Of a stretch of DNA of 64,000 nt, positions 6,139 to 64,000 are shown piece by piece (the first letter of the stretch is position 1; each line of letters starts with the position of its first letter). The stretch lies in contig OZ024743.1 of assembly GCA_964016885.1 (NCBI GenBank), forward strand, positions 300,328,001-300,392,000, given 5' to 3'. Source of the DNA: Eledone cirrhosa. Its lineage: Eukaryota. The notes beneath the pieces were generated by a model. That model searched no databases. It was not told the DNA's origin and was given only the letters and a program-made list of their open reading frames with translations. Made by a program: the position numbers and the translations under genes.

Positions 6139-6194
<56 letters not shown>

Positions 6195-6239
6195 GATATT
6201 AAATAAATGGAAACTATATTTATAAAACCATATTTATTT

Positions 6240-6298
6240 CATTATATATATTTCAGGGATATCATATTAACAATATGCTATGCCTTCCTCAGACAAAA
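6240..6298 (-). ncRNA. Hammerhead-like ribozyme (type I) in 3' pseudo-LTR
   Basis: Minus strand reads CTGAGGA-agg...catatt gtt aatatg...cct-GAAA-tata-TA, with a palindromic minimal stem III. Stem I register is imperfect. Confidence 0.7.
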
Positions 6299-7642
6299 TA
6301 CAATATAGACAGTTTTATAGATAAATAGATTTGACATACCGTTCAACATCGACTTGTATTTGAAAAGTTGATTTGGCAGTGAAAAAATTGTAAACAGAAA
6401 GAAAGAGAGAAAAAAGGAAAGAAAGAAAAGAAAGAAAGAAAACGAAGAAAAAGAAGAAATGCATGGAACAAAATAGAGAGATGGAAAGATAGATAAAGAG
6501 AAGAACTTCATGTAAAGAAACAGAGAGAGATATATATAGAGAGAGGAAATAGATAGAGATAGATATATATAGAGAAAAGTAGGTAGTTGGACATCCGTTG
6601 AATAAACGTATCAATGATACATTTATTTATTTATTTATTTATTTAGCTCTAGTATTAATGTAAGGGAGATATATGTGGTTAGGAGAGAAACCAGCTGTTA
6701 TATAGAGAGAAAAATGAAAAGTAACCAGACATAGGCGAGGCATAAAAACCCTATGTTTTAATGTAGAAGTATTAGTATGTATAAAAACCAGGCACTATAA
6801 TGTAAATATCAGTATTCCTGAATGAGACACGTATCCATAATGTGTGAAAAGTAATGATCTTATGTTTAGTTTTAAAAATTCATATGTTTATATGATAACT
6901 ACAAACATCGATGTGAATTTACGTGATCAACTCTGCAAACCCCAATCTCACACGGAGAACATTCTCATTGTGCTATAAAAATTTAAGTATACATATATGT
7001 GTATATATATACACATATATATAGACTCTATATTACTACCATTCTTGTCTTTACTCTACATGATTATCTATCAAGCAGAAATAGAGAACAGATTTCAATA
7101 TATTAATAAAAAAACAGATTTCAATATATTAATAAAAAATATCAGAAACAAAAACAAAAAAAATAATAATAATAATAATAATAAATAATAATAAAATAGA
7201 AAACTAAAAAATATTACGAAAAAATATTACGTATTAAAAATATTACATATTAAAAATAAAAATATTAGAAAATACTACAATAATAAAAATAAACCACAAA
7301 GATCAACCCTTCAAAATTAATTGACAATATATTGCCAAGTTCATTATAAGCATCAGAGTCGAAAACAGATAAAGCTAAAAATGATTTATCAAATCGCGTC
7401 TAGCAAAAATCATTTCAAAAAGTTTAGGATGCCCATTTGGTCTACATGTGTTCTTATATTTAATATAGAAGTTTATCTAGTGTAACGTTTATTCGAAATA
7501 TTTGGAGCATCAACTTTTAGGGTAGTTTAATTTTTCATGAAGAATGTTTAAATAAAAATAAAAATAAAAAGAAGAATAAAAAGAAGAAATCGAAAGATTT
7601 ATCGGCTAGTTTCCCAAATAATTATAAATCAAACTAAATATA

Positions 7643-9863
7643 CTACATTTTAAATTTAATTTTATATTTAAAAGTTGAGTTTAATCTATGTTTGCAGCAA
7701 CTGAATAAATTTGTCCGTAGATTAAGGGAATCTTTAGATTTTAGTATAAAGAATATCTCCTCTGCGCAGAGGTCACATGTCTCAGAGGATGAATTAAAAG
7801 GAATCCCTCTTGAGACTATATTCCAAGCCGTCGAATATCTAACGTTATCTAGCTTAAGTTGCCAGAGTACGCCTGATAGTGCTGTTGAAGATTTTTTGCT
7901 TGGATCTGTGAAAGAAATCTTGTGGTTATTATAGCGAAGTTTAAATTCCGTCGATGTGGAACCGACGTAGTTAAAAGAATTAGAGTCAGTTTTAACATTA
8001 CAATTGTATATTATATTTTTAACTAAGTAGTTGTTATTTAACGGACATTTAGATCTATCTCTACAGTTACATTTGTTAACTTGTATATTATTTATGCTAT
8101 TATCACTAGGTTTTAAGTTCCTATTATTTATTCTATTAATATTTTGTGCTAAATTTTTGGTGGATGAGTAGGTTAATTTTATAGTATGTCTATTGAAAAT
8201 TGAGTGATACCTATGTGTTCTAGGGAAGCGATTATCAAGAGCTTTAAAAAATAGTTTAGCGATGTGGGTTTTAATGTTTAGTGAGAAAGGGGGGGGGGGG
8301 GGCAAACCAAATTATGTTCCTAGTTCTATTTCTTTTTTGGCTTTTGGAATTATTGTAATGCTTTCTATTATAGTTGTTAAGGTTGTTGCCGTAATTAAAA
8401 TAGTTGTTATTTTGTTTAGTTTGTCTATCATTATCTATGTACATAATCTTATCACTATATCCTGCTCTAGCTAACGCTTCATTGTAGTACTGGGCTTTTT
8501 CGTCGAAAATCTTTCTATTAGACGAGATTCTAGAGATACGTTTTTGAACAGAGTTTACTATAGTGTTTTTGACAGATCTGGGGTGGTTAGAGTTAAAGCT
8601 GACATAGTTTAAGTTTTCATTCAACTTGTGAAAAGGATAGTGAAGACATGTGTTGAGATTTAATGTTATATCTAGGAAATTGACTATTCTATGGTTGTTC
8701 TCAATTTCTATTTTAAGATTAAAGTAATTAAAAAATTGTGTAATTTGTTTACATTTTCTATTTAGTTCAGAGTTATTATTATCAATAAGTAAAAGCATGT
8801 CATCTCTATATAAACCTCCGGTAGTACCAGGTATTTTCCTATGTAGCGAATTGATTAAAAGTAAGCCCACAAGGTCAGTTACCTGAGCTGAGTCGGATGA
8901 TCCCATAGTAATGTCAAAATTGCTATCTCTATCTGCTCTGGTCCATAGTTGGTCTTTAAATTCTATCAATGTTTTCCTAGCCGATAATATAATATGCATT
9001 TCATTGCTAGTTAGGTCTGTATGTTTGAATGCGTAATTTAGTGCCTTATTTAGTAGATTAGGGGTAATAGAAGAATAATAGTTAGCAATATCAAGTTGAA
9101 TAAACTTATTATTATTGTTATATTTAATTTGCTTAAACCACTCAACAACCTCTCCAGTTCCCTTCCACAAGCTCAGGTTAGGTAAACAATCCAAGTTCTT
9201 AATTTGCTGTATCACCCTGTCAAGAATGTTTTTGCTTAATTTGCCCAGGTCCGATTTTGATGGTGCGATCAATCTGACTGGCAAGTCATTTTCAAAATTC
9301 CTCTTGTGATCTTTCATATTGATCTTCGGTTTCCTGGGCACGAAAGGTTGTGTTCTGTTCTCAATTTCCAACTCGTGCATTATACAAGATGCTTCGACAT
9401 TCATTTTCTCAAGCTCGGCCTTATCTGCTACCTTGTACTTTTTCCTCAGGTCCTTCAGTATGAGGCCATTATACATGTCTTTCTGCACTCCATAGAGGTT
9501 GTTGGTCTTGTCAGATTTCACCAAGATCTTCTCAGTTTTCTCTAAGCTCTCAATATTATCCTTAATGCCTTTCAGATATTCCTGGCCTTTGAAGTTTCTC
9601 TTGAATTTGACCCCTTGTATGATAGAAATTATATCGTTTTCAAAGTCAGATAAAAGTTTGTTAGGGGGTGGATTTCTTTTAGATTTGAAAACTTTGTTTA
9701 AGTCCGAGACATTTTCATTTATATTAGATTTATCAAAGTGGAATGCTCGCCACCTGATTCTCCTTATAAAAGAGTCAGATTTATCTATTAATTGTTTTAT
9801 AAAGTCTTTGTTTCTAGGTAGAGGTATGTCTTTTAAAGAGGAAGTAATCTTAAAGAATTCCAT
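7643..9863 (-). CDS. PLE polyprotein (reverse transcriptase + C-terminal GIY-YIG endonuclease), ~739 aa if one base is removed from the C14 run at 8289-8302
   Basis: The 530-aa ORF has RT motifs QLDIANYYSSI, FDITMGSSDSAQVTDLVG, GLYRDD, VNFLDITL and SNHP. The overlapping 220-aa ORF has CNCR..CPL, NIIY..YVGST..FKLRYNNH, CDLCAEE and SCCKH. The frames switch at WFAPP|PFSL inside the homopolymer. Confidence 0.9.
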
Positions 9864-10046
9864 TTTTTCAGTTATAATATAAAGCGCTCAACAGTATTGG
9901 AGCAAGATACATGGAAAGTTATATTTAAATTGTTGGGTTACAACTAGTAAATATTTATAACTGATATAAAAGCACACGACAAGTATTTGGAGTATATTTA
10001 CGATATTAAATAAATGGAAACTATATTTATAAAACCATATTTATTT

Positions 10047-10105
10047 CATTATATATATTTCAGGGATATCATATTAACAATATGCTATGCCTTCCTCAGA
10101 CAAAA
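10047..10105 (-). ncRNA. Hammerhead-like ribozyme in 5' pseudo-LTR copy
   Basis: Same sequence as 6240-6298. Confidence 0.7.
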
Positions 10106-10482
10106 TACAATATAGACAGTTTTATAGATAAATAGATTTGACATACCGTTCAACATCGACTTGTATTTGAAAAGTTGATTTGGCAGTGAAAAAATTGTAA
10201 ACAGAAAGAAAGAAAGAGAGAAAAAAGGAAAGAAAGAAAAGAAAGAAAGAAAACGAAGAAAAAGAAGAAAAAGAAGAAATGCATGGAACAAAATAGAGAG
10301 ATGGAAAGATAGATAAAGAGAAGAACTTCATGTAAAGAAACAGAGAGAGATATATATAGAGAGAGGAAATAGATAGAGATAGATATTTATAGAGAAAAGT
10401 AGGTAGTTGGACATCCGTTGAATAAACGTATCAATGATACATTTATTTATTTATTTATTTATTTAGCTCTAGTATTAATGTA

Positions 10483-10530
<48 letters not shown>

Positions 10531-10539
10531 TAGATAAAT

Positions 10540-13500
10540 ATACACGATTGTGTATAGTAGATTATATTAATAAAAGGAATTCCAACTTTGTCTGATTTAC
10601 TTGTTTTATTTACAATCATTTAAAATTTATAATGGTATTAGAATGAAATAGTATGGTAGAATATTAAATGTTAAGTGTTAATTGAACAAGTACTTTCATG
10701 CTTTCGCAATCTTCAGGTTCTTAATGTGTGGTGACAGTCAAGTTTGCAATTTTCAACTGCAATGAGATTGTGTGCCTTATATACAGTGAAAAATGGCTCC
10801 AGAATGCTAATTCTTGCAAACTGTATTTCGACCAATCGGTGTGTAGTTTCACTGTATTACTAAAGCTGATTGGTTTAGGCGTCACGGTTGGTTGAACATG
10901 TCTAACGACTACTATTTGACCCTATCCAAAGCATCAATTGTTTTGCTATTTTTTAGAAATGATGAAAAGAGCATTTTCTAGTAATGATCACCATCAACAT
11001 CAATTTTATTATTATTATTATTGTTGTTGTTGTTGTTAGTGGTCGTAGTCGACATGGTCTTAGTCATAGTCATAGTAGGAGTAACCTTCCATTATTATTG
11101 TTCATTTAGCTTGGGTTTGAATTTATCAATAAAATTATTTTCTTTGATTTTTCTCTTGATTTCACTTGGGCTGTGTAATTTGTAGAATGGGAATATTATA
11201 AATATTCACTGACCACATGTGGCTAGATGGTTACTTAGGGGTATCTGACGGACATTTGGGTCTCTGAATTGCTGTCGGTGTACCCTTGCACGTTCCGATA
11301 GTGCATTTCCAGTTCGACCGACATATAATTCTTCACAACTCGGGCATTTAATGCAGTAAATTAGATTTCTGCTTTTGCAGTTCATATTTGCATTTGGTAA
11401 TATTTTTCCAGTTTTTGTTTTCATATATTGACCGGCGTGTATGGATTGACATGTACCACATCGACTATCTCTGCATTTAGATACAGTGAATGATTGGTCT
11501 CTTGTTATTAAGGTCAAACTTTGCTTTTGTTAGTAATTGCTTCAACTTTTTCGGCTGTCTTTTACTAAGAGTCAAAGATCGATCTGTGATTAAGCCTTTT
11601 AATTAACTACTTTGAGCATGATCGGTATGTTTGCTTTGGCAGTGTTGAAGGTATTCAGGTGACATGGGTTGTGTGTCATTATAAATGGTATGACCGATTC
11701 TTGGTTTCTTCTTCCTTGGGTTGTCTTAAGTTGTTGTATAGGTATTTTTATAGCCCGCTGTATGCCATTTTCTATAAGTAGAGATGGGTATTTTTGTTTG
11801 AGCAAAAATTCTCATAGTTCTGTTAGGCGTTTGTACCTGGTATTCGTATCTTCTAAAATGGTACAAATTCTTCTGGCTAGGCAGTATGGGATGTTGCGTT
11901 TTGTATGAGATGGATGGCACGACTTAAAATTAAGATATTGATGGGTGTCTGTGTGTTTATAATATATATCCGTGGTAATGGTGGTGTCGTTTTTGATTAT
12001 CATTATATCTAGGAATGGTAATTTGGTACTACTCATCTCTTTTGTGAATTGGAGAGATGGGTGTAGGTTATTCAGGAGGATATTGAACTCATCCAGAGTA
12101 TCTAGAGATTCTGTCCAGATGATGAAACAGTCGTCAAGGTATCTCTTCCAAGATTTTTCAATGTACTTTCTAAAGTCAGTACTATATTTTTCCTCTATTT
12201 CTTGGTAGAGTTGTTGTTCTAAGTATCAAATTACAGAGATTGCGTAAACGGGAGCAAACTTCGTTCTCATCGCTATGCCTCTAATTTGGATGTAATTCTT
12301 TCCATTGAAGAAGAAAGTGTTGTTTGCTAGAATAAGTTTAACTGCGTCTAATATAAATGGCGCTGTGAATCTAATGGGAATCACTTCTCTATGTTTTTCC
12401 ACCCAGTATTTAACCGCCTTTATTCCTAAATCATGTGTAATGTTGGTGTAAAGGCTTACCACATCAAAACTAAGTAGAAATGAATTCGTTTCCGTGGTTT
12501 GGGGAAGATGGGACAGGAAGCCAATATCATCCCGGAAGAAACTGGGTATGTGAATACAAAGTGGTTTCAAAATAATGTCAACACAATTGCTTAGACGGTG
12601 AGTGGGGCATGTTGGACCAGCTATAATAGGTCTAAGTTTTAAGTCTTTTGGGTGTAGTAATTTAATGTACTCAGTCTTTTCTTCTCTTACTGCCAGTTCT
12701 ATTTCCTTTGACTTATGAACTTTCGGTAGGCCATACAGTTTGCTGGGGTTTGGCTCAAAATTGGTGATGTAGTCTCTTTCCTTATCAGTAAGTGAGTTGT
12801 GGTATTTTGAAGCCACGTTGTTGATCTTCTTCATGATGTTGTGGTCTATATTTGACGGTATTTCATGATAGAATATTGTGTCTTTCAGTTGTTCCTCAAC
12901 CAAATCCTTGTAGTATTCAGCATCCATTATAACAACTGCACCCTCTTTATCTGCTTGTTTAATTATTATTGTTTTATCAACTTGTATACGTTTAAGTGCA
13001 GATATTTCTGATTTGTTAATGTTTGTCGTGACATTAGTATTACGTCTAAGAGGAAATTTAGACAGGATGTCAATGTATTGGTCGAGATAGATATTTCTTC
13101 CTTTTGGCGGAGTCAAATTTGATTTATTCTTTACTAGTGATTCATCACTCTCATTAATTTTATCAGCGAAGAATTCTACAGGACGTAATTTTCGACAGAA
13201 TTCTTGGGTATCCTCCTTCAGTTCTTGGTGGTTAACTGTTGGAGTCGGTGTGAATTTCAGTCGTTTTGACAGAATTTGCATTTCATTATTGTCAAGATCT
13301 CTTTTGGATAAATTAATTATTTTAGGATCTACGTGTTTTGGGTATGTTTCTTCCTGCAGTTTTTCTTTTTCCGGTTTTTGTTTTCCTGACGTTAAAAAAT
13401 GGAATTTTCTCTGTTCAGTATTTATATTCCTGTTGGTGTTTGCTTGATGAACTTTTGGTCGTGGTATTATATTTGGTTTCGTTATGTATTTTGTCCTATT

Positions 13501-14700
13501 TTTGGTATTATGTATATTATATTTCCATTTCTTGTTAGCATTATTTTTAACAATCTGAGGGAAATGACCAAGGTTTGCTTTCAGGTTTGGATCGTTTTTT
13601 CGTCCAGTTTCTTGTGGGTAATCTCTGTTGAGATATTGAGAGTGATCTGGTTTATCTACGTTTTGTTTCCCCGTCCCTTGTGGGTAGTTTCTGTTGAGAT
13701 CTTGAAAATGATCTCCTGGTTTTACTACTTCTCATGGTCTGGTCAAAGGAATATCTATCGTGTTTGTGTTTTTTGTTCATGTTGTGTGCGTTAGGGTGTT
13801 TTTGTAGAAAATACGAAGAGTTATTACCGTAGTTCTTCTTTGATTCAAGGTAAGGTGAGTGTTTGTGTTGGCACGTGTTCTGGCGGATGTTGTGTTGGTG
13901 AGATTGTCCACTTTTAATGCTTTTTCTCAAGGTTCCAGAGTCTTTACCGTAATTTGCAGCATATTCGTCGAGAAAGAAATAATTGTTTCTGCGGCCATTC
14001 CTTTCTTGATTTGATTTCTTCTTTTGAGATATCTATGATCCATAGTTCTCGTAGTTTTTCAGCTAGAATACCAGTCGTCAGCTTTGAAATTTCAACTTCA
14101 ATTTGGTCATCGATAGCTTCATATTTGGCTTTGTAGCGGGATTATTTACATTGAGAAATGGAGATGTCGGTCCTTAATTTTGTCAATGTAAGTTCCCATC
14201 GCAGTTTTGTTTCTTCTTCTGGTTCTCCTGCAATTTCTGTAATTAGGTATTTACGAGGGAGTATGGGTGCCTTTAGAGAGAGCCATTTCGAATGTGTTTC
14301 GACATATTTTTCGCATTTGTATGCTTTCCAGAAGTTTTGTTTTCTTACGTTAAGAAATTTTTTCCCTCTCTTCCACATTTCTTTTCTTATTCGATGTGTT
14401 TTGTTTTCCAAATTTCTTTCGTATAGTTCTCACATCCAAGGGGGTTGTGGTAGGCTTTCTCTTGTATATTTGATAACTGTTGGTATAATTTCAGCTAAAT
14501 TCTTAATTTCAGAGTTTATATGTTCAGATATAAGTTTTCCGTCTGTAGATTGTTTTTCTATTTCCTTTAAAGTAGAGGATTGTGTGTCAATCAGCGTGAT
14601 AAATGCTTCAGGTTCAATTAACGTACTTGTTCAATTACCGTGTTCAATTAACGTACTTGTTCAATTAACACTTAACATTTAATATTCTACCATACGATTT
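10540..14700 (-). mobile_element. Decayed Neptune-like Penelope element (frameshifted RT + Cys-linker + GIY-YIG, with N-terminal extension)
   Basis: Colinear ORF pieces: LKFTPTP, YGLPKVHK, LRPIIAG, SFDVVSLYTNI, QIRGIAM, KRYLDDCF, LPFLDI, SCHP, then CRDSRCGTC...NLIYCIKC..C..LYVGRT. Multiple stops and frameshifts. Confidence 0.88.
10681..10725 (-). ncRNA. Minimal type I hammerhead ribozyme at the 3' end of the Neptune-like element
   Basis: Minus strand reads gaac-CTGAAGA-t-tgc gaaa gca-t-GAAA-gtac-TT-gttc. Stem I is gaac/gttc and stem III is the palindrome AGTACT. Confidence 0.8.
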
Positions 14701-14764
14701 CATTATAATCGATTTTAATTTGATTTTATATACATATATATGTATATAATTAAGGTATTGAAGA

Positions 14765-16240: not shown

Positions 16241-16442
16241 ACAATATATTAACAAATGGGAAGTATATTTATAGAACCATATTTATTACATTATACATGT
16301 TTCAAGGGCCATCAAGGCAAGCTATGGTGCGCTTTCATCAGATAAAATATAATATAGGTTAGTTTTATGAATAGATATTGACATACCCTGAAAAAATGCA
16401 ACCATTCTGGGTGGAATCACAACAAATTAAATATAACCTCAA
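16241..16442 (-). mobile_element. Solo pseudo-LTR 3' end related to 6192-6400, with hammerhead core at ~16289-16346
   Basis: Flanks are alignable. Minus strand reads CTGATGA-aag...ccat..atgg..ctt-GAAA-catg-TA. Confidence 0.75.
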
Positions 16443-16526: not shown

Positions 16527-16576
16527 CATTCATACAGACATATATATATATACATTCATACATACATATATATATG

Positions 16577-16635
<59 letters not shown>

Positions 16636-16684
16636 TCATACATACATATATATATATATATACATTCATACATACATATATATA

Positions 16685-17613
16685 TCTATATATATAAAAC
16701 TGAGGTTGTCTGTCTGTCTATCGATTTTTGGCACACATCTCCTCTTAGAATCTCTCACGGAATTGCACCGAAATTGCTATACTTGTACATTGAGCCGTAG
16801 CGAAGACATCGGGAAAAAAAAATTTCAAATTGACCCGCCCTATCTGACGAAATCGAATATAATGTATCGATTTTTGAGCGTAAGTGATCAGTTATTTCCC
16901 TTTGTTCTGTTTACATTCAGCGTCTGCGTGAAAAAATTAAAAAAATTACGCTGGCTTTCTCAGCGTTTAAAATGACTGCAACATTCATCAGTTCGAACAC
17001 TAAGCTTCCGTTTTGCTTCATTTCCATTTAAAAGCCTTTTAAGACAATATTTTTACTTGAAAACAAGTCTATTTAAAGACTACGTAAAACAAGCAAATAT
17101 TTCGTAAAAAAAAAGCAAAAATTATATAAGTTTATTTAAAATATATGTATCTGTAAATTTCGTTAGGCGTGCAGACAGACAGTCGTGCAGACAGATAGTC
17201 GTGCAGAGAGGTGATATACGCGTGCAGACAGATAGTCGTGCAGAGAGGTGATATAGGCGTGCAGACAGACAGTCGTGCAGAGAGGTGATATAGGCGTGCA
17301 GACAGACATAACTGATAATTTGGTTACGCTAATGTTTTTCTCTGCGTTGCAGTGTTTACATTTTCGATCTTTGTTAATAAATAACCAGTGCAGTTTTTAT
17401 CCCCAGCATCCTCTTTTGTTATAACATTCGGGTTATCGTTATGTTTTCTTAACTTCATAAGGCATATTGTTGGTTGAGGGAATATTAATCAAAAACACGA
17501 CATGCAAGTCTGCACAGTAGACATTACAGTTTTTAAGCCAAAAAAGAAACTTAACATTGTAACTTTAACACAGCTACTGAGCGACCCCGAGCAACGCCGG
17601 GCTTTACTGCTAG
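16685..17613 (+). mobile_element. Non-autonomous Helitron
   Basis: 5' end TCTATATATATAAAA..TGTCTGTCTG. 3' GC hairpin cccg-agcaacgc-cggg followed by CTAG. A|T target site. Internal ~37-bp tandem repeat at 17165-17310. Confidence 0.85.
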
Positions 17614-17638
17614 TATATATATATATACATTCATGCAT

Positions 17639-17696
<58 letters not shown>

Positions 17697-17724
17697 TCAT
17701 ACATACATATATATATATATATGA

Positions 17725-18992
17725 TATGGCCGATCTGGGCTGTATCGGCGATGTTACTCCCAATTACACCTTATCGGACATAACGTTTGGCGCCCCTGAT
17801 GTCTTAGCGGCAATAAAGGAAATCAAGCATAATTCAGCAGTAGGTCCCGATAGGTTCCCTGCTTGTGTCTTGAAGGCGTGTCAACACCAACTTGCATCTC
17901 CTCTTGCCAATCTGTGGCGGAACTCACTGGATGCTGGATATGTGCCAGAAAACCTTCTATCCCAGTCTGTTGTCCCAGTTTTCAAAAAAGGAAACAAATC
18001 CCTTGCCGTGAATTACCGTCCAATATCTCACTCACCATCATTAAGGTATTTGAGAGAGTGGTGAGATCGCGAATGACTCACTTCCTCGAGAGTAACAATA
18101 TGCTGAACTCCAACCAGCATGGATTCCGTAATGGAAGGGATTGCCTGACGCAGCGACTGCATCACTTTGATGACATTTTGAGAGCCTTGGGAGAGGGTTC
18201 CAACACTGATGTTATCTACCTTGATTTCAGCAAGGCCTTTGACAGGGTTCATCACAACATTCTACTGAGAAAGCTGTCCAATATTTGTGTCACTGGAAAG
18301 CTGCTGCAGTGGATCAAGAGCTTCCTGTCAAACAGAACCCAACATGTTGTAGTCGAAGGAGTCAAATCCAGCCCAGCCAAAGTCAGTAGTGGGGTCCCAC
18401 AAGGCACTGTGTTGGGCCCACTTCTCTTCATCATCTATATTAATGACATCACTGACGTCATCAAACACAGCAACATTAGAATTTTCAATCATGAAAAAGA
18501 TAGATGGCATGTCAGACCTTGACTACAGGGGTCGATTAGAAAAGCTGAAACTTTAATCACTCCAACGTCGCCGTGAGCGTTATATTATCTGCATGATGTG
18601 GAAAATGTTTCATCATCACTGCCCAAATGATTTTGGCATCACCTTCAAATTACACCCAAGGCTTGGGCCCCGTGCTATCAAACAAAAATCTAAATTGCAT
18701 CTCATAACAACAATACGGCACAATTATTTCACCTCAATTGGCCCTGCTCTCTTCACCATCACACCAGGACACGTCAAAACAGAAACTGACCACACAAAAT
18801 TCAAGAAGTCTTTGGACAAATTCCTCCAAGTAATCCCGGACAAACCACCCAAACCCGGATATGTCTCCGCAAACAGTAATTATCTTCTCGAATGGGCCAT
18901 GGTGCCCAAATCCTGAATTGAAAGACTTCGCCAGGTGGTGCTATTAAGTTAGACATGGCCTGGGCCAATACTGGCCAAAACATTTCAAAGTT
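17725..18992 (+). mobile_element. CR1/L2-group LINE fragment with an internal deletion removing the ADD catalytic motif
   Basis: GPDRFP, VVPVFKKG, NYRPIS, QHGFRNGR, DVIYLDFSKAFDRV, SGVPQGTVLGPLLFIIYIND. At ~18487 the sequence jumps to the C-terminal region. Confidence 0.9.
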
Positions 18993-19010
18993 ATATAGAT
19001 ATATACATTC

Positions 19011-19072
<62 letters not shown>

Positions 19073-19086
19073 TCATACATACATAC

Positions 19087-19140
<54 letters not shown>

Positions 19141-19142
19141 TC

Positions 19143-19212
<70 letters not shown>

Positions 19213-19214
19213 TC

Positions 19215-19275
<61 letters not shown>

Positions 19276-19280
19276 CATTC

Positions 19281-19315
<35 letters not shown>

Positions 19316-19521
19316 CATTCATACATACATATATATATATACATTCATACATACATATATATATATATACATTCATACATACATATATATATATACATTC
19401 ATACATACATATATATATATATATACATTCATACATACATATATATATATATATATACATTCATACATACATATATATATATATATACATTCATACATAC
19501 ACATATATATATATATACATT

Positions 19522-19588
<67 letters not shown>

Positions 19589-19601
19589 TCATACACACAT
19601 A

Positions 19602-19680
<79 letters not shown>

Positions 19681-19813
19681 TCATACATACATATATATAT
19701 ATATATATATACATTCATAAATATATATATATATACCTTCATACATATATATATATATATACATTCATACATATATATATATATACCTTCATACATATAT
19801 ATATATATACCTT

Positions 19814-19878
<65 letters not shown>

Positions 19879-19997
19879 GCATACATATATATATATATAT
19901 ATACCTTCATACATATATATATATATATACCTTCTTACATATATATATATATATACCTTCTTACATATATATATATATATATATATAAATATATACA

Positions 19998-20046
<49 letters not shown>

Positions 20047-20200
20047 TCATACATATATATATATACATTCATACATATATATATATATATATACATTCAT
20101 ACATACATATATATATATATATACATTCATACATATATATATATACATTCATACATATATATATATATATATATACATTCATACATACATATATATATAT
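18993..20200. repeat. Compound microsatellite of (TA)n punctuated by CATTCATACATA; continues at 16445-16684, 17614-17722 and 23284-23556
   Basis: Direct reading. Confidence 0.95.
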
Positions 20201-23200
20201 GAATATAGACATAGAATATTCGAAAATATTCTGTATGTTTATAATAAACATTTTGAAGACCTAATCGCTATAGAATAGAATACGTCACGTATTACAATTA
20301 GATTCTCGATAAAAGCAAGGGAAGTAATCTACGCGTTTCATTCTTGTTAGAAATCTTCAGGACTACATATCCAGTGCTTTTATCGAGAATGACACAGCTA
20401 GAGACTTATAGAATACTTAGCTGTGTACAGGAACTGGTTTGAAAGAGCGGTTGCCGGTCCGGCAGAAATTAGAAATTGGAATAAATGCTCTGAAATAGCG
20501 ATATATATGTGAATATAGACATAGAATATTCGAAAATATTCTGTATGTTTATAATAAACATTTTGAAGACCTAATCGCTATAGAATAGAATACGTCACGT
20601 ATTACAATTAGATTCTCGATAAAAGCAAGGGAAGTAATCTACGCGTTTCATTCTTGTTAGAAATCTTCAGGACTACATATCCAGTGCTTTTATCGAGAAT
20701 GACACAGCTAGAGACTTATAGAATACTTAGCTGTGTACAGGAACTGGTTTGAAAGAGCGGTTGCCGGTCCGGCAGAAATTAGAAATTGGAATAAATGCTC
20801 TGAAATAGCGATATATATGTGAATATAGACATAGAATATTCGAAAATATTCTGTATGTTTATAATAAACATTTTGAAGACCTAATCGCTATAGAATAGAA
20901 TACGTCACGTATTACAATTAGATTCTCGATAAAAGCAAGGGAAGTAATCTACGCGTTTCATTCTTGTTAGAAATCTTCAGGACTACATATCCAGTGCTTT
21001 TATCGAGAATGACACAGCTAGAGACTTATAGAATACTTAGCTGTGTACAGGAACTGGTTTGAAAGAGCGGTTGCCGGTCCGGCAGAAATTAGAAATTGGA
21101 ATAAATGCTCTGAAATAGCGATATATATGTGAATATAGACATAGAATATTCGAAAATATTCTGTATGTTTATAATAAACATTTTGAAGACCTAATCGCTA
21201 TAGAATAGAATACGTCACGTATTACAATTAGATTCTCGGTAAAAGCAAGGGAAGTAATCTACGCGTTTCATTCTTGTTAGAAATCTTCAGGACTACATAT
21301 CCAGTGCTTTTATCGAGAATGACACAGCTAGAGACTTATAGAATACTTAGCTGTGTACAGGAACTGGTTTGAAAGAGCGGTTGCCGGTCCGGCAGAAATT
21401 AGAAATTGGAATAAATGCTCTGAAATAGCGATATATATGTGAATATAGACATAGAATATTCGAAAATATTCTGTATGTTTATAATAAACATTTTGAAGAC
21501 CTAATCGCTATAGAATAGAAGCACTGGATATGTAGTCCTGAAGATTTCTAACAAGAATGAAACGCGTAGATTACTTCCCTTGCTTTTATCGAGAATCTAA
21601 TTGTAATACGTGACGTATTCTATTCTATAGCGATTAGGTCTTCAAAATGTTTATTATAAACATACAGAATATTTTCGAATATTCTATGTCTATATTCACA
21701 TATATATCGCTATTTCAGAGCATTTATTCCAATTTCTAATTTCTGCCGGACCGGCAACCGCTCTTTCAAACCAGTTCCTGTACACAGCTAAGTATTCTAT
21801 AAGTCTCTAGCTGTGTCATTCTCGATAAAAGCACTGGATATGTAGTCCTGAAGATTTCTAACAAGAATGAAACGCGTAGATTACTTCCCTTGCTTTTATC
21901 GAGAATCTAATTGTAATACGTGACGTATTCTATTCTATAGCGATTAGGTCTTCAACATGTTTATTATAAACATACAGAATATTTTCGAATATTCTATGTC
22001 TATATTCACATATATATCGCTATTTCAGAGCATTTATTCCAATTTCTAATTTCTGCCGGACCGGCAACCGCTCTTTCAAACCAGTTCCTGTACACAGCTA
22101 AGTATTCTATAAGTCTCTAGCTGTGTCATTCTCGATAAAAGCACTGGATATGTAGTCCTGAAGATTTCTAACAAGAATGAAACGCGTAGATTACTTCCCT
22201 TGCTTTTATCGAGAATCTAATTGTAATACGTGACGTATTCTATTCTATAGCGATTAGGTCTTCAAAATGTTTATTATAAACATACAGAATATTTTCGAAT
22301 ATTCTATGTCTATATTCACATATATATCGCTATTTCAGAGCATTTATTCCAATTTCTAATTTCTGCCGGACCGGCAACCGCTCTTTCAAACCAGTTCCTG
22401 TACACAGCTAAGTATTCTATAAGTCTCTAGCTGTGTCATTCTCGATAAAAGCACTGGATATGTAGTCCTGAAGATTTCTAACAAGAATGAAACGCGTAGA
22501 TTACTTCCCTTGCTTTTATCGAGAATCTAATTGTAATACGTGACGTATTCTATTCTATAGCGATTAGGTCTTCAAAATGTTTATTATAAACATACAGAAT
22601 ATTTTCGAATATTCTATGTCTATATTCACATATATATCGCTATTTCAGAGCATTTATTCCAATTTCTAATTTCTGCCGGACCGGCAACCGCTCTTTCAAA
22701 CCAGTTCCTGTACACAGCTAAGTATTCTATAAGTCTCTAGCTGTGTCATTCTCGATAAAAGCACTGGATATGTAGTCCTGAAGATTTCTAACAAGAATGA
22801 AACGCGTAGATTACTTCCCTTGCTTTTATCGAGAATCTAATTGTAATACGTGACGTATTCTATTCTATAGCGATTAGGTCTTCAAAATGTTTATTATAAA
22901 CATACAGAATATTTTCGAATATTCTATGTCTATATTCACATATATATCGCTATTTCAGAGCATTTATTCCAATTTCTAATTTCTGCCGGACCGGCAACCG
23001 CTCTTTCAAACCAGTTCCTGTACACAGCTAAGTATTCTATAAGTCTCTAGCTGTGTCATTCTCGATAAAAGCACTGGATATGTAGTCCTGAAGATTTCTA
23101 ACAAGAATGAAACGCGTAGATTACTTCCCTTGCTTTTATCGAGAATCTAATTGTAATACGTGACGTATTCTATTCTATAGCGATTAGGTCTTCAAAATGT

Positions 23201-23283
23201 TTATTATAAACATACAGAATATTTTCGAATATTCTATGTCTATATTCACATATATATCGCTATTTCAGAGCATTTATTCCAAT
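20200..23283. repeat. Head-to-head array of a 310-bp hammerhead-containing non-coding unit (retrozyme-like non-autonomous PLE)
   Basis: Unit starts at 20201, 20511, 20821, 21131 and 21441, then an inversion at ~21520, then starts at 21521, 21831, 22141, 22451, 22761 and 23071. Only two substitutions were noticed. Confidence 0.95.
21532..21574 (+). ncRNA. Type I hammerhead ribozyme (first of 6 plus-strand copies at 310-bp spacing; 4 minus-strand copies from 20324-20366)
   Basis: gtagtc-CTGAAGA-t-ttct aaca agaa-t-GAAA-cgcg-TA-gattac. In full units stem I is extended by the 16-bp helix attctcgataaaagca/tgcttttatcgagaat. Predicted cleavage is after A21568. Confidence 0.9.
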
Positions 23284-23393
23284 ATATATATATATATACA
23301 TTCATACATACATACATATATATACATTCATACATACATATACATATATATATATATACATTCATATATATATATATACATATATATGCATTC

Positions 23394-23424
<31 letters not shown>

Positions 23425-23426
23425 CA

Positions 23427-23468
<42 letters not shown>

Positions 23469-23500
23469 CATTCATACATACACACACACACACACACATA

Positions 23501-23560
<60 letters not shown>

Positions 23561-24352
23561 CTGTCAGACACGCAGTGACTAACAATAGAATGTTTTAAGT
23601 CTGCGTGTCTGACATATATACGTAGCTTGAGAATAAACAAATTCAAGGGGTGTCGCTGTCATGGTGATCGCTGCCAAACATGTTTTTAATGTATCGTCTT
23701 ATTGGCTAATCAACCAACGCAATTAATTGTTGCTCAAAAGAACTCCGCCATTTTGTTTGCACGTTTATTTATTTTGTTTGCACGATTATTTATTTCGCTT
23801 TCGAATCTTCCTCCTATTTCGTCGTTTATCATCAAAATATTTTTCTCGTTTTGGTAAGTTTTATTGTTAATTCATATATGATTTTTTAAGTTTATATTAA
23901 CTATTTTTTTTTTCAGTTCGTTATAACATGCTTATAATATTGGTTGTATCATATTTACTTGTATATTTGTCCATATTATTGTTCGTCTTATGTTAGATTA
24001 TTTAATTATTATTATGTTAGATTATTTTTTTATTATTATGTTTACTATTTATATGTAATATTTAATTTTTATTAATTCAACTATAACAATTATTATGTAA
24101 AATATATTTATTTAATATTGATTGATTTTTGTAGTTGTTTATATTAAAAGTCTGAAAATATGTTTATACATCTTACAATAATATTTATAAGATCATTTAT
24201 AAAATAATTTGTATACATCTTACAATAATATTTATAAGATCATTTATAAAATAACTATTATATAATCTAATTACATTACAACGATAAGTTATTATTAATA
24301 TATAAAATGTTTAACTAGAGTTATTACAAGCGGTGCCTTAAAAAAATATTAA

Positions 24353-24798
24353 ACTAGACCTGAAAAATGCGCAAGCTCAAAAGAGTTACATAATGTTATA
24401 ATAAACCTTCAAAAGTATGGGACTAGAGTTGTTGCTCAGAAATATTGTAATCATTATCTATCGTCCACTCTGTCGCATCCGTTTACAAAAATGAGACTCG
24501 TAACGAACTCAAGACGGCACGATAATTATTTAAGTGAATTTATAATATAGAATTCGGTTTAAGTGCATTTCGTATTAATCATTACTAAACATCTAATATG
24601 AGATATTGAACATTAGCTTAAATAATTATCGTGTCGTCTTGAGTTCGTTATGAGTCTCTTTTTATAAAAGGATGCCACATAGTGTACGATAGATAATGAT
24701 TACAATATTTTTGAGCAACAACCCTAGTCCCACACTTTTGAAGGTTTATTATAACATTCTGTGGCTCTTTTGAACTTGCGCATTTTTCAGGTCTAGTA
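24353..24798. mobile_element. MITE with ~180-bp terminal inverted repeats
   Basis: ACTAGACCTGAAAAATGCGCAAG... / ...CTTGCGCATTTTTCAGGTCTAGT. Arms are 24353-24534 and ~24616-24798. Confidence 0.8.
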
Positions 24799-25507
24799 TA
24801 TATATGTATACACATATATAAATATGCGCGCGCGAGCGTGTCTGTGTGCGTGTGTGACTGTGGATGTGTGGGTATTTATATATAATTTTAGTTATATACC
24901 ACCCACTGTTATATTCAGTGATGAGTTTATATACAGGTGCTCCTTCAGAATCACATTATTGTCTTTAACAACTTGAACGTTTTCAGCTTTGAAAGTTGGA
25001 GCAATTTACTTTTACTATGAAATGTGTAGCATCGATATCATAGGTTACTTGTTGCAGAATTGTATACGAACATAATCATTTTAAAATAGATGTACATATA
25101 TATATATATATCAGAAAAATCCATACTATATTGTATAAAATACGACAAAGAAAAACGTGAATGATGAAGGTTTAGACTTAGCAACTTTAATCTCATCTAA
25201 TAAATATCTAAGCTGTCTAAACATAATTTTACCCTTGTTTTTTTCTTTGTAATATCATACGTATATGTCAATAACTAGTTAAACAACGAGATGACCTTCT
25301 TCACCAAATATGATTCAGTCGGATTCTTATGGAGATATATTAACTGACAAAAACACGACTGACACTAGCTAGGATTTGACGTTGAGGAGGTTGAAGTCGA
25401 TTGGGATGAAATATCGTGTAAAACATAAATCGACATACAAAAATGAAGAAAGATGTATTTTTGTTGTATCATTATGTATGCGTAACCATATGCTTCTAGA
25501 TATGAAA

Positions 25508-25582
<75 letters not shown>

Positions 25583-25585
<3 letters not shown>

Positions 25586-25933
25586 GTATGTATAGTATAT
25601 TTGGTAATATACCGTATGTTTAATTAAAAACATTTTAAAGTAGTGACTATGTCACTTACTTCTTTTTTCGGCAAAGGAAGGGCGAGAGCACACTTTTCGG
25701 CAAAGGTCGGGGAGTACGTTGCTCTGAGGAACACCAACGGTGCGTAACAGAATCTGTCAGCTTCTCTCTCTTCCTTTACCAAAAAAAGAAGTAAGTGACA
25801 TAGTCACTACTTTAAAATGATAGCGCAAGTTCTTCCAAATGTTTTTAAATTAAACATACGGTATATTACCAAATATACTATACATACATTCATGTATACA
25901 TCGCTATTTCAGAGCACCAATCCTTGTTTATTT

Positions 25934-25938
<5 letters not shown>
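25583..25938. mobile_element. Foldback mini-element with a hammerhead carrying a core mutation (25721-25761) and a tail
   Basis: Arms are ~25583-25690 and 25765-25890. The core reads gct-CTGAGGA-a-cacc aac ggtg-c-GTAA-caga a tctg-TC-agc (GAAA changed to GTAA). Confidence 0.8.
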
Positions 25939-25981
<43 letters not shown>

Positions 25982-26320
25982 CTTAACACTTCACACAGAG
26001 TAAAACATTTCGTTTTAATCATTTTCTAACAAGAGAAAAAAGAGAGAGGGAAACAAAAAGGAAAAACATATATTTTTCTTCCTCATAATCGTCTCTTTCT
26101 CCCTGTTTTCACATATATATATATATATATATATATATCAAGGAAGAATATTTTCGAAACAGCGTGTGCGTTTGAAATTATTAGAAATGTATCGCCGTAT
26201 TTTGACTAAAGAAATTAAAGAAATTACTTAGCCTGATAGTGGGGTTAAGAACCCTCAGAGAAATGGAAAAATATGAGTATTGACGTCATATATATATATA
26301 ATATATATATATAGAGAGAG

Positions 26321-26697
26321 ATTTTGAGTTTATGTTGGTTGTATACCAACACCTCAATATGCAGGCTGGAGCACTCGACGAAGTGCGCAGGTTGGTTTGG
26401 TTACTCCGGAGTAGTGTAAAATAAAGTTAAATAAAAGTCAAATGATTAAAATTTAGCTTCGTTTATTACTGCTATATATATTTCAGACTCCAGTTCCCCA
26501 GTGAATTAACAACCCAGCAAGGAACTCGGCGTATCAGAGTATTGACAATATCATACACCTAAACAACATATGTACTTGTCTATACTATACTAATTCAAAC
26601 TGCCTGAAGAGGTCACAGCCAAAGATGGCTGTCACTGAAATATATATAGCAGTAATAAACGAAGCTAAATTTTAATCATTTGACTTTTATTTAACTT

Positions 26698-26705
<8 letters not shown>
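26321..26705. mobile_element. Foldback mini-element with intact hammerhead and ~95-nt tail
   Basis: A ~70-bp inverted repeat at 26417-26486 and 26636-26705. Confidence 0.8.
26599..26653 (+). ncRNA. Type I hammerhead ribozyme
   Basis: actgc-CTGAAGA-ggtcacagcc aaagat ggctgtcact-GAAA-tatata-TA-gcagt. Stem I is perfect. Confidence 0.88.
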
Positions 26706-46454: not shown

Positions 46455-46732
46455 GTGAGGTTTTTTTTACAAAATGATAAATAACCGAGGTGTCCTACAC
46501 GAGTGAAAGTATAAAGAAAAAAATATGAAATCGAAAATACAACTGGATTCTTATTTTTTTTTTAAATATATATATTTATTTAGTTCCTTTACCGGTTTCG
46601 CAGTTCTTCTGCAGTTCTTCTGCTTTTCAACTCTACTTTTGAAAAGCAGAAGAACTGCGAAACCGGTAAAGGAACCAATTAAATATATATATTTTTAAAA
46701 AAAATAAGACTCCAGTTGCATTTGCGATTTCA

Positions 46733-47489: not shown

Positions 47490-49090
47490 TATAAAAGAGA
47501 AAACACAGGTAAGCTTTAAGAGAAGGATTTTATCCAGGTATTTACGACCGTTTCATTGGTAAGTGCAACCTTATATTGCTATACGGCAAATTGCAGCCAC
47601 TCAATTATAATTGTTGTTCACAGTCCAAATTTTCAAAATAGTGAGTAAGTTACTCTTGAAATAATTGTTAATATATAGAGAAAAACATTTATTTGGAATT
47701 GTATTTACTAGTATAGAGAGAGAGGAATCAGAAGGTGATGGGACACACGGTATAGTATAAAGAGAGAGGAAGGGGGAGAAGAGTTAGGAAGTAGAGTGAC
47801 AAACTGCGAAGGAGGGAGTGGTAGAAGTGGAAGGATTCCTTGATCAGTTTTGATATTCAGACTTCATGTCGTGGAATGTAGTTAGTGAAAGAGAATTAAA
47901 TTGACCATTGTGGCGGGGGGGCGGGGGATAAATAGAGAGAGAAAGGGGGGAGATATAAAGTGATAAATATATATAAAAAAAAACAATAATAATGATAAAG
48001 ATAATAATGACAAAAAAAAGCAAAGAAGGGGGCAGAAAGAAGAAAAGAAAAGATAGCCAAGAAGGGGATGGAAGGAAGGAAGAAAACGAAGAATTAGAAG
48101 AGGAATGAAGGAGAAGGGGGGATATAGCTATTGTTTTTTTTGGGTAATTAAGAGGGTTTAGATACAACAAGAGGGTATACAGTCTAAGTATATGCAGTTT
48201 GTCAGTTGGTAGTAAGAGGTTAAGGTTTCGATTTGCACTTGTAGTGCGAAAACTTCTCTTTGAGTCTATGGTTACAATAAATTGATCTTTCGATTTTATT
48301 GTTGAGTAACTTATTCTTCGAACTCAAAATGTGGAACAGTTCAAGGTCGCATAATCGACAGCTTCTCATACCACTCCGATATGGGGGTGCGTTCGATAAT
48401 TTTTTCCACTTCAGGTTTACTTTCCTTCAGTTGCCAGGTCTTGTTTGCAAGAGTAGTTACATAACGATGCTGGGAATGTTTCATTGCGTAACGGTGTGTA
48501 TACCAACGGGCTTTAAATGTATTCCCAGTCGCTCCGATGTAATAACATTTCTGGTTGTCTGATTCCACTGTGCATTGGTAAACCAGGTTAGACTGCATAC
48601 ATTCATTATGTAATGGACAGGTTTCAGTTAGGTGGCAGTTACAATTCTTGTCATGGGCAACTTTGGCATTATTGGTGGGCTGCGATGCCTGTACAAGTGT
48701 GTTACGTTTTGTTTCCCAATTAGCGGGTGGTTGTGTATTAGATATTCTGTTGTGTTCAATGGTGATTGTATTGTTATTGTTGTAAATTTGTGTTTTGGTG
48801 TTGTTATGTATCTTTTTAGCGTTAAACATCTTAATGTGTGCCTGGTGCCGTGGAGTAAGATAGTCTAATAGATTTAGTGTTAAGGATTTTGCTGTATCTA
48901 TGTGAATCTGGAAAGTGCTTATTTATTATTCTAAAGAAGGTAGAGGGTAGGTTAGTACTAATAGAGGTGTTAAATATGGGGTTATACCAAATATATTTTC
49001 TTCTACGGGACTTATTTGATTTCGATGTTGTATTTCTATTTACCGTCAACTTTGTAGTTCTATGCGTAAGTGCATTTTGGTACGACTCAT
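47490..49090 (-). mobile_element. 3' fragment of a Naiad-like PLE
   Basis: KYIWYNPIFN..KHFP..HRYSKILN, CNC..CPL..C..SNLVYQC..YYIGATGNTFKARW..H. A purine/pyrimidine-skewed 3' UTR runs to (TA)n. Confidence 0.8.
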
Positions 49091-49204: not shown

Positions 49205-51064
<1,860 letters not shown>

Positions 51065-62049: not shown

Positions 62050-62088
<39 letters not shown>

Positions 62089-62092
<4 letters not shown>

Positions 62093-62816
62093 TATGTATA
62101 CGTACATACATATATGTATACAGACGTACAGTAGTATCTCTATATATATATATATATATATATACATACATGCACACATATATATATATATATGTACGTA
62201 TGGATTCACCGAACATTTATTATAATGCTCGGTGTGTTTGTAAACAAACATCGCGAATTAAACCGTACAGTGTCTAGCAACTATTGTTGCTCATTTGTTC
62301 AACACTGACAATGGAACGCTGTAATATTTTCAAGCTTATTAGCTATCGTCAGCAACGTATACCTTCCTGCCAGATGGTTGAACGTCTGAAAGTATATGCT
62401 TTCCTTATGCATATTAACGGCTGAGCAGCCTAATTTGCATATCGAGTCAGTTAATCGGCCGGGGTACTGAAAACGATAAACGGAAAAAAATGAAACGAAA
62501 TTTCATTTCTAACTCTTAGTACGGCTGTTACTTAAATATAAGTATGTATACATACATAAATATATGTATACAGACATATTTTTTCTTATATTTATGTGTG
62601 TGTGTGAATATGTAGGTGTGTGTATATATTTCTATATTTGTGCATGCGTATGTATGCGTGCATATATGTGTGTATGTATGTGTATGTACGTACGTGTGTA
62701 TATACGTATTATTGTGTGTATGTATGTATGTATGTATGTATGTATGTATGTATGTATGTATGTATGTATGTATGTGTATGTATATATGTATGTATATGTA
62801 TGTGTATGTCTATATG

Positions 62817-62848
<32 letters not shown>

Positions 62849-63324
62849 TATGTGTGTGTATGTATGTATATATATGTGTATGTATATATATATATGCATG
62901 CATATGTGTGAGTATGTGTATGTGTATGCACGTTTGTGTATTTGTATGGATGTGTATGTATGGATATGTTGATATTTATGTGTGTATGTATGTATGTGTA
63001 TATGTATGTGTATGTATATATATACACATATATATATGTGTGTGTGTATATATGTGTGTGTGTATGTATGTGTGTATGTATATATATGTTTATGTGTATG
63101 TATATAAGTGTGTGTTGTGTGTGTGTGTTTGCATGTGTGTTTTTATTTTTCCTTTCCTTCTTCCTTTTCCAGCCTCACTTTCATATAGATTATATATTTG
63201 TTTTTTAAAATCCAACGCCAATAAATATACCAGGATTCTTTCATTCTGATGATTGAAAGCAACATGTTGTTGCTTTTAAGAAACCACTGGTAAATGAAAT
63301 AATTGCCTTATGTTGTTTATTACA

Positions 63325-63376
<52 letters not shown>

Positions 63377-64000
63377 CATGCACACATATATATACGTACG
63401 TATGGATTCACCGAATATTTATTATATTGCTCGGTGTGTTTGTAAACAAACATCCCGAATTAAACCGTACAGTGTCTAGCAACCATCGTTGGTCATTTGT
63501 TCAACACTGACAGAAGTACGCTGTAATAGGTTCAAGTTTATTAGCTATCGTCAGCAACGTATACCTTCCTGCCAGATGGTTGAAGTCTGAAAGTATATAC
63601 TTTCCTTAAGCATATTAACGGCTGAGCAGCCTAATTTGCATATCGAGTGTGTTAATCGGCCGGGGTACCGAAAACGATAAACGGAAGAAATGAAACGAAA
63701 TTTCATTTCTCACTCTTAGTACGGCTGTTACTTAAATATAAGTATGTATACGTACATACATATATGTATACAGACGTACAGTAGTATGTATATATACATA
63801 GACATATATACATACATGCACACATATATATATATATGTACGTATGGATTCACCGAACATTTATTATAATGCTCGGTGTGTTTGTAAACAAACAACGCGA
63901 ATTAAACCGTACAGTGTCTAGCAACCATCGTTGTCATTTGTTCAGCACTGACAAAGGAACGCTGTACTATTTTCAAGCTTATTAGCTATCGTCAGCAACA
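62089..64000. repeat. Interrupted tandem array of a ~440-bp hairpin-rich unit
   Basis: gtatggattcaccgaa occurs at 62198, 63400 and 63842 (period 442). A partial unit end lies at 62089-62137. Confidence 0.9.
62560..63140. repeat. Compound (TATG)n/(TG)n microsatellite
   Basis: Direct reading. Confidence 0.95.

Follow-up and report, generated by a model that had tools for sequence, protein, structure and literature searches.

The non-LTR retrozymes of metazoans derive from the pseudo-LTRs (pLTRs) of PLEs (10.64898/2026.07.22.740005), and a 2020 review described these repeats as showing no conserved motif that indicates their mobiliser (PMC7761336). PLEs in general have a 30-40-bp tail and inverted copies (PMC8557442; PMC3846280), and their pLTRs carry TATA- and Inr-like motifs (PMC3846280). 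In vitro, a PLE of Anolis copies from two internal start positions, one on either side of the tail, and extends both strands; a start lies in an AC-rich stem loop, ribozyme cleavage is dispensable, and no homology to the cut DNA is needed (PMC11167929). The Penelope endonuclease of D. virilis needed the tail for recognition of plasmid DNA (as cited in PMC11167929). Published work already covers non-LTR retrozymes and how they relate to pLTRs, as well as the tail, inverted copies, targeting of (TA)n and initiation at two sites. Our literature search, which covered subscription journals thinly and is weak evidence for novelty, returned neither a conserved initiation-site fold in retrozymes nor a retrozyme array with the full tail signature, and the words 'tail' and 'junction' are absent from the main text of Li, Clavereau and Pollet 2026 (10.64898/2026.07.22.740005).

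Here we compare with these systems two hammerhead elements, a 310-bp tandem array (20200-23283) and a foldback element (25583-25937), located in a 64-kb stretch of DNA (the window). The array and its flanks comprise the following features.

18992..20199, no strand: left target flank, compound (TA)n microsatellite (repeat/flank comparison)
20200..21520, minus strand: left arm of the array, ~4.3 units, ends at junction 1, no tail
21515..21520, no strand: head-to-head inversion junction of the arms; overlap 2 nt exact, 5/6 nt
21515..23283, plus strand: right arm of the array, ~5.7 units, ends at junction 2, with tail
23082..23124, plus strand: minimal type I hammerhead of the last unit, with 6-bp stem I, 4-bp stem II and palindromic 2-bp stem III; predicted cut after 23118 (own descriptor)
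23176..23272, plus strand: ~97-nt four-helix RNA domain, array copy
23177..23182, plus strand: 5' strand of the closing helix, pairing with 23258-23263 inside the 17-mer
23236..23253, plus strand: hairpin 3; junction 1 after 23248, at the border of loop and 3' strand; the 3' strand is the TA-like patch
23249..23283, plus strand: 35-nt PLE-type tail between junction 1 and junction 2
23256..23272, plus strand: 17-mer, array copy (exact search)
23284..23560, no strand: right target flank, compound microsatellite identical in kind and orientation to the left flank

Tandem-repeat analysis gave a period of 310 with 4.3 + 5.7 copies and 99% matches, and the eight full units contain two substitutions among them in total. 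The hammerhead is present in ten identical copies with zero core errors in a descriptor scan. In Rfam searches, hammerheads were absent among the 150 of 187 matches listed for the whole window, which were hairpin and microsatellite noise, and each element alone (270-280-nt stretches, E up to 10) returned hairpin and microsatellite noise and no hammerhead. The GC content is ~0.30-0.31, and there are no open reading frames of at least 100 aa in the array, except for frames running through the flanking microsatellite. Tandem units within ~170-400 nt, the occurrence of a type I hammerhead in two or more consecutive units, lack of coding capacity and GC below 50% are the marks of retrozymes, and all are found here. 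Judged by its sequence, we classify the 310-bp array as a non-LTR retrozyme with predicted self-cleavage and predicted circular RNA. Like the described metazoan elements, it is a low-GC, non-coding tandem repeat, here of 310 nt, with a type I hammerhead per unit, and it has a solo monomeric relative and PLEs in the same window. Unlike them, it consists of two head-to-head arms, bears a PLE tail and lacks a recognisable target duplication (PMC7229834; 10.64898/2026.07.22.740005).

The features of the foldback element are as follows.

25509..25582, no strand: left (TA)n flank
25583..25668, minus strand: inverted arm, ends at junction 1
25665..25937, plus strand: sense arm, a single pLTR-like unit
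25721..25761, plus strand: degenerate type I hammerhead with one core substitution and 3-bp stem I; nominal cut after 25758 (read from sequence)
25819..25916, plus strand: four-helix RNA domain, foldback copy; MFE z -3.4
25880..25897, plus strand: hairpin 3 with A/C-rich loop; junction 1 after 25890, inside the loop
25891..25937, plus strand: ~47-nt tail
25900..25916, plus strand: 17-mer, foldback copy (exact search)
25938..25978, no strand: right (TA)n flank

Its inverted and sense arms show zero substitutions and differ by a 22-23-nt deletion between 5-nt direct repeats and by a homopolymer slip. Both elements had been described in an earlier note as hammerhead elements. This holds for the array, with its intact core in ten copies, but for the foldback the core is degenerate (GTAA for GAAA, 3-bp stem I), and its hammerhead was missing from the descriptor-scan list at the score cut-off used. 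As a single unit with a mutated core, the foldback falls outside the definition of retrozymes by tandem units and intact hammerheads, and it differs in both respects, non-tandem layout and mutated ribozyme core, from the metazoan non-LTR retrozymes (PMC7229834). It is best filed as a solo, degenerate retrozyme relative. The deletion in the inverted arm (25620-25630 versus 25816-25842) removes the 5' strand of the closing helix, and the left arm of the array (21515-21520) ends ~9 nt past the same strand; RT may stall or jump at the closing helix. At 25665-25707, a 13-nt direct repeat provides the long stem-I extension with two possible 5' strands. Of these, the first differs from a true inverted copy at ~5/26 positions and thus predates the foldback insertion.

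The anatomy of the insertions agrees with the earlier description. One arm of each element breaks off at ATT(CA) and gives way to (TA)n (arm ends 20200 and 25583), the opposite arm runs on through the TA-like patch and the motif to 23283 and ~25937, and a PLE-type layout with a tail on one inverted arm is seen at both loci. In each case an inverted, 5'-truncated copy is joined head-to-head, and (TA)n lies on all four sides. The tail is found on one end only and measures 35 nt in the array and ~47 nt in the foldback, the latter slightly over the 30-40-bp range of PLEs. The orientation of the compound microsatellite is unchanged across the array. Telomerase-like synthesis of this flanking microsatellite from element RNA was considered and rejected: its orientation is the same on both sides of the inverted insert, and its variants are common to neighbouring units. 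The 12-mer unit of the compound microsatellite occurs in 28 copies, all on the plus strand and all within 16553-23469; nested insertions (LINE fragment, PLE fragment, 310 array) have probably interrupted what was a single ancestral tract. Most likely, the 12-mer resembles the junction-1 sequence of the elements through low complexity. A 5'-truncated LINE-type RT fragment (Pfam RVT_1) lies within the same tract at 17725-18985 (plus strand).

The 17-mer, reported previously at 23256-23272 and 25900-25916, is exact at both positions. A search of the 64-kb window allowing up to three mismatches yielded 11 matches, all of them exact, versus 0.16 expected; ten of these are copies within the 310-bp array, which leaves two independent occurrences. 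No third independent carrier was found at other hammerhead elements or PLE ends of the window, even at five mismatches. The two carriers had been regarded as otherwise unrelated, and their alignability had been set beforehand as the outcome that would count against this. Indeed, their 3' ~100 nt align clearly and the remainder weakly, and blastn gives 78.7% identity over an 89-nt match whose last bases are the motif (E 1.5e-15). After removal of patch and motif, the local alignment score was 105, compared to a mean of 50 and a maximum of 75 in shuffles (0/1000 as good). Segment by segment, shuffles scored as well in 0/1000 cases for the 3' domain without the motif (strong), 3/1000 for the middle (moderate) and 40/1000 for the ribozyme segment (weak). 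Per 20 columns, identity is ~30-60% across the ribozyme half and climbs to 65-85% in the 3' domain, in which 76/96 ungapped columns are identical. The segments are colinear, and the ribozyme cut lies 130 and 132 nt from junction 1 in the two elements. A two-sequence profile and a covariance model run on the window found the array and the foldback and nothing else. Scans for stray copies in bacterial and archaeal genomes gave none, as did blastn of the unit against phage records, both uninformative for an animal repeat. Our verdict is that the array and the foldback appear to be two related non-autonomous PLE derivatives, diverged subfamilies of one lineage. Common descent, head-to-head arms, the tail on one arm, the (TA)n target, the near-identity of units and the youth of the insertions can all be read from the DNA itself.

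How much the 17-mer stands out depends on the background. The longest perfect runs in the alignment are 17 (the 17-mer), 9 and 8 columns. Within the 89-column block, a 17-nt perfect run has a P of 0.20 by permutation and 0.10 under independent sites at 73.6%; measured against the whole 237-column alignment P is 0.002, a low value that arises because identity is uneven. The probability that exactly those 17 columns all match at local identity is 0.0055, a post hoc figure. Six of the 17 bases form the invariant 3' strand of the closing helix, and for the last 8-9 bases a conserved pairing partner is absent; these may be a protein contact or a chance survivor. A role of the 17-mer as an anti-ribozyme strand was set aside, as its pairing partner is the ribozyme core in the foldback fold and a different one in the array unit. 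On balance, the data are best read as constraint on a ~100-nt region, of which the 17-mer is the best-preserved end. Of the proposed RT recognition signal, one part is likely, namely a conserved cis-signal beside the priming site. The other part, a stand-alone 17-nt signal common to unrelated elements, is not supported: the carriers are homologous, the run is unremarkable within the conserved block, and 6/17 bases are a helix strand. We conclude that the shared 17-mer reflects descent together with constraint on a larger RNA domain at the start of reverse transcription.

This domain is defined by the minimum free energy (MFE) fold of foldback positions 25819-25916, in which a closing helix surrounds three hairpins (z -3.4, 0/200 shuffles). 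When the fold was laid on the alignment, the array unit retained 25/27 pairs; two pairs are changed on both sides and two on one side, all still pairing. RNAalifold recovered the same four helices. Randomly re-dealing the 20 observed substitutions kept at least 25 pairs in 0.3-0.8% of 20000 trials, and re-dealing only the nine stem substitutions did so in 0.09%. Structures slid along the alignment pair 26-59% of cells versus 96% for the actual placement. These values refer to two independent sequences; the structure under test was derived from one of them, the foldback, and the shuffle control built into the structure tool was not significant with these two rows (149/500 for covariation, 74/500 for percent paired). 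The MFE fold of the array unit on its own arranges the inner helices differently from the foldback fold, the closing helix is lost when the unit is folded from the cut site to the tail end, and the array antisense strand folds as well as the sense strand (z -3.5 versus -3.1). The TA-like patch is the 3' strand of hairpin 3 and contains one compensatory pair, and junction 1 falls inside or at the end of the hairpin 3 loop in both elements. Computation supports a ~97-nt four-helix domain under selection for its fold, ~60-155 nt 3' of the ribozyme cut. With two sequences behind it, such a structured initiation domain adds modestly, and in a testable way, to what is known.

The same patch had been proposed to anneal to the nicked microsatellite. 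The 9-nt patches of the two elements are offset by 2 nt in the homology alignment, and junction and motif are 7 nt apart in the array, 9 nt apart in the foldback. The junction therefore shifts with the patch and does not keep a fixed distance to the motif, which supports annealing at site 1. For all seven junctions with known continuation, the 10 nt from the earliest possible junction were scored post hoc against (TA)n. Array site 1 reached 9/10, the best of 310 positions. Foldback site 1 scored 7.5, equalled by 7/237 positions, and is homologous to the array site and hence not independent. Array site 2 scored 6 (67/310 positions as good), the Hydra-type end 7 (116/567), the foldback at 26.3-26.7 kb 4 (125/165), and the two ends of a tandem element at 62-64 kb 8.5 and 7.5 (45/472 and 82/472, with 7 and 5 nt of microhomology). 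When scored, likewise post hoc, from the latest possible junction, array sites 1 and 2 gave 8/310 and 266/310, versus 1/310 and 67/310 from the earliest. Annealing of the patch is accordingly plausible at site 1 but not at array site 2 or at most neighbouring elements; TA pairing seems to help and not to be required. Because the TA-like tract is self-complementary, fold and annealing are not fully separable from sequence.

With the Poseidon PLE of Anolis (PAc), both elements share two termini 30-40 nt apart that bracket a tail 3' of the hammerhead, and an AT-rich target (PMC11167929). Also common to both systems is a first start in an A/C-rich stem loop, and ribozyme activity is dispensable in PAc (PMC11167929). 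PAc differs in being autonomous and in starting ~85-92 nt past the ribozyme cut (+26 and +111-118) versus 130-132 nt here; moreover, it starts without target homology, whereas array site 1 is the most TA-like window of its unit (PMC11167929). Non-autonomous Chlamys elements such as MRC1 resemble the present ones in head-to-tail multicopy insertions, 3'-end similarity to a partner and microsatellite targets, but are green-algal and mostly without hammerheads (PMC8557442). The Hydra and Neptune clades of PLEs share (TA)n targeting and a hammerhead in the pLTR (PMC8557442), and both have members in the window.

A Hydra-type PLE with RWR, DKT and CxCX5C motifs is encoded at 7643-9887 and a Neptune-type PLE at 11206-13731; these clade calls rest on motif comparison with PMC8557442. 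Pfam recognised 0/7 PLE-like proteins, the LINE fragment being the sole match (1/8). The Hydra-clade element is near-complete (6194-10460, minus strand), inserted in (TA)n, with two 97%-identical pLTRs, a hammerhead in each, and a frameshift at a G run between RT and endonuclease. Hydra-related fragments lie at 16243-16440 and 26290-26703, and further Hydra-type pieces at 90-830, 1487-1870, 48341-48980 and 49234-50293. The Neptune-type element (10520-14720, minus strand) is broken; its 3' pLTR has a hammerhead at 10716 with the same layout as the array hammerhead, and a small hairpin resembling hairpin 3 at a similar distance 3' of it. Both PLEs are without the 17-mer and without the domain. 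The Hydra-type element ends ~50 nt from the ribozyme cut, and the Neptune-type pLTR runs ~158 nt to its end, similar to the array spacing. The Neptune-type pLTR aligns weakly, with 1/500 shuffles as good against the array unit and 39/500 against the foldback.

Several other repeats carry hammerheads or inverted arms. At 26313-26703, a third hammerhead element has the same inverted-arm anatomy without the 17-mer, and its continuation past the junction is A/C-rich, not TA-like. A tandem hammerhead element with a period of ~442 nt (62050-62560 and 63330-64000, minus strand) ends at internal TA patches and has two hairpins similar to hairpins 1 and 2; at 63246 (plus strand) there is a separate hammerhead. 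This tandem element has a covariance score of 21-30 bits, equal to the microsatellite background, and shuffles aligned as well in 1-2/300 cases against the array unit and 10-31/300 against the foldback, so that it was not counted as a relative. Two more foldbacks, at 24350-24800 and 46540-46720, have long terminal inverted repeats and are MITE-like, with no hammerhead in the descriptor scan.

The explanation we favour, and consider fairly probable, is that the array and the foldback belong to diverged subfamilies of a single non-autonomous lineage derived from pLTRs, the former being a non-LTR retrozyme and the latter a solo relative; they would be copied in trans by the protein of a (TA)n-targeting PLE and carry an RNA domain selected for its fold. 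The PLE protein would bind the ~97-nt domain in trans and nick both strands of the (TA)n tract. A first cDNA would be primed at site 1 in the loop of hairpin 3, its register probably set by pairing of the target TA end with the TA-like 3' strand of the hairpin. Priming of a second cDNA would take place at site 2, which lies 35-47 nt 3' of site 1, and would rely on no more than 1-2 nt of pairing. Both cDNAs would then be joined head-to-head via microhomology, as suggested by the overlap at 21515-21520 in the array, and the 310-bp multimers would most likely arise from copying round a circular or multimeric RNA. PAc ribozyme mutants retain the ability to insert (PMC11167929), in keeping with a foldback that is young yet has a degenerate ribozyme. 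Against the annealing step stands the one in vitro PLE system that primes without homology (PMC11167929). Neither element contains an autonomous PLE ORF (telomerase-like RT plus GIY-YIG), and tblastn of the neighbouring PLE proteins gave no match in 20200-25937. An autonomous PLE carrying the 17-mer or the domain was sought within the 64-kb window and none was found; pLTR homology to an autonomous family, within the same window, gave no clear match and a weak one to the Neptune-type pLTR. A more specific version is put forward tentatively, as possible and not as probable: the covarying four-helix domain and a sequence-specific 3' flap in the tail would be the PLE binding and start signal of animal retrozymes, with the nicked (TA)n strand invading hairpin 3 at the first start, as in telomerase-like primer-template pairing, and the second start being almost free of pairing.

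The shared 17 nt could alternatively be a free-standing linear motif, captured or converged on by unrelated elements as the RT recognition signal. As the longest perfect run, rare against 237 columns and at its exact columns post hoc, with 8-9 terminal bases that have no conserved partner, the motif lends itself to this reading, and it lies wholly inside the tail that the Penelope endonuclease needed (cited in PMC11167929). We nevertheless regard it as very unlikely, given the homology of the carriers, the ordinary run length within the 89-column block and the lack of a third independent carrier in the window. The tail motif might also act as DNA, either as an endonuclease recognition site for homing into the element's own copies or as part of an internal promoter. 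The need of Penelope endonuclease for the tail in plasmid DNA (cited in PMC11167929) and the TATA- and Inr-like motifs of pLTRs (PMC3846280) would be in line with such a role. Compensatory changes point to single-strand folding instead, and both insertions here went into (TA)n and not into a copy of the motif. The spacing from patch to motif is also shorter than the usual distance from TATA to initiator, and a function as DNA appears very improbable.

Two further explanations accept homology of the 3' block. The 3' initiation domain might have been recombined recently onto different ribozyme modules, the 5' halves being unrelated, much as SINEs share the 3' ends of their LINE. Consistent with this, the ribozyme segment alone aligns weakly and the hammerheads differ in stem III and stem I design, yet the segment from ribozyme to domain aligns above chance, order and spacing are colinear, and both elements have the same long stem-I extension, so that we consider a swap unlikely. 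Neutral ancestry, in which old subfamilies drifted and the 3' block merely diverged more slowly with neither fold nor motif selected, could account for the non-significant run-length test and shuffle control of the structure tool in a comparison of two sequences, and AT-rich alternating sequence folds readily. It is harder to reconcile with two compensatory pairs (null P 0.003-0.008), the poor pairing of slid structures and an identity gradient that is highest at the region defining the termini, and we rate it as quite unlikely.

A motif common to unrelated elements would have been the surprise, and that claim does not hold. The domain bears on the way in which PLE proteins select their internal start sites and on the machinery that mobilises animal retrozymes, the link between retrozymes and PLEs having rested to date on co-occurrence and pLTR similarity. 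Being non-coding, ~100 nt long and marked by compensatory changes, it escapes the coding constraint to which the corresponding region of autonomous PLEs is subject, and it is a compact substrate for structure probing and TPRT. If the more specific version is true, the domain would serve as a barcode for locating the autonomous partner, and the occurrence of the complete two-site PLE signature in a retrozyme array would provide direct evidence from the genome that multimers stem from PLE target-primed copying of circular or multimeric RNA.
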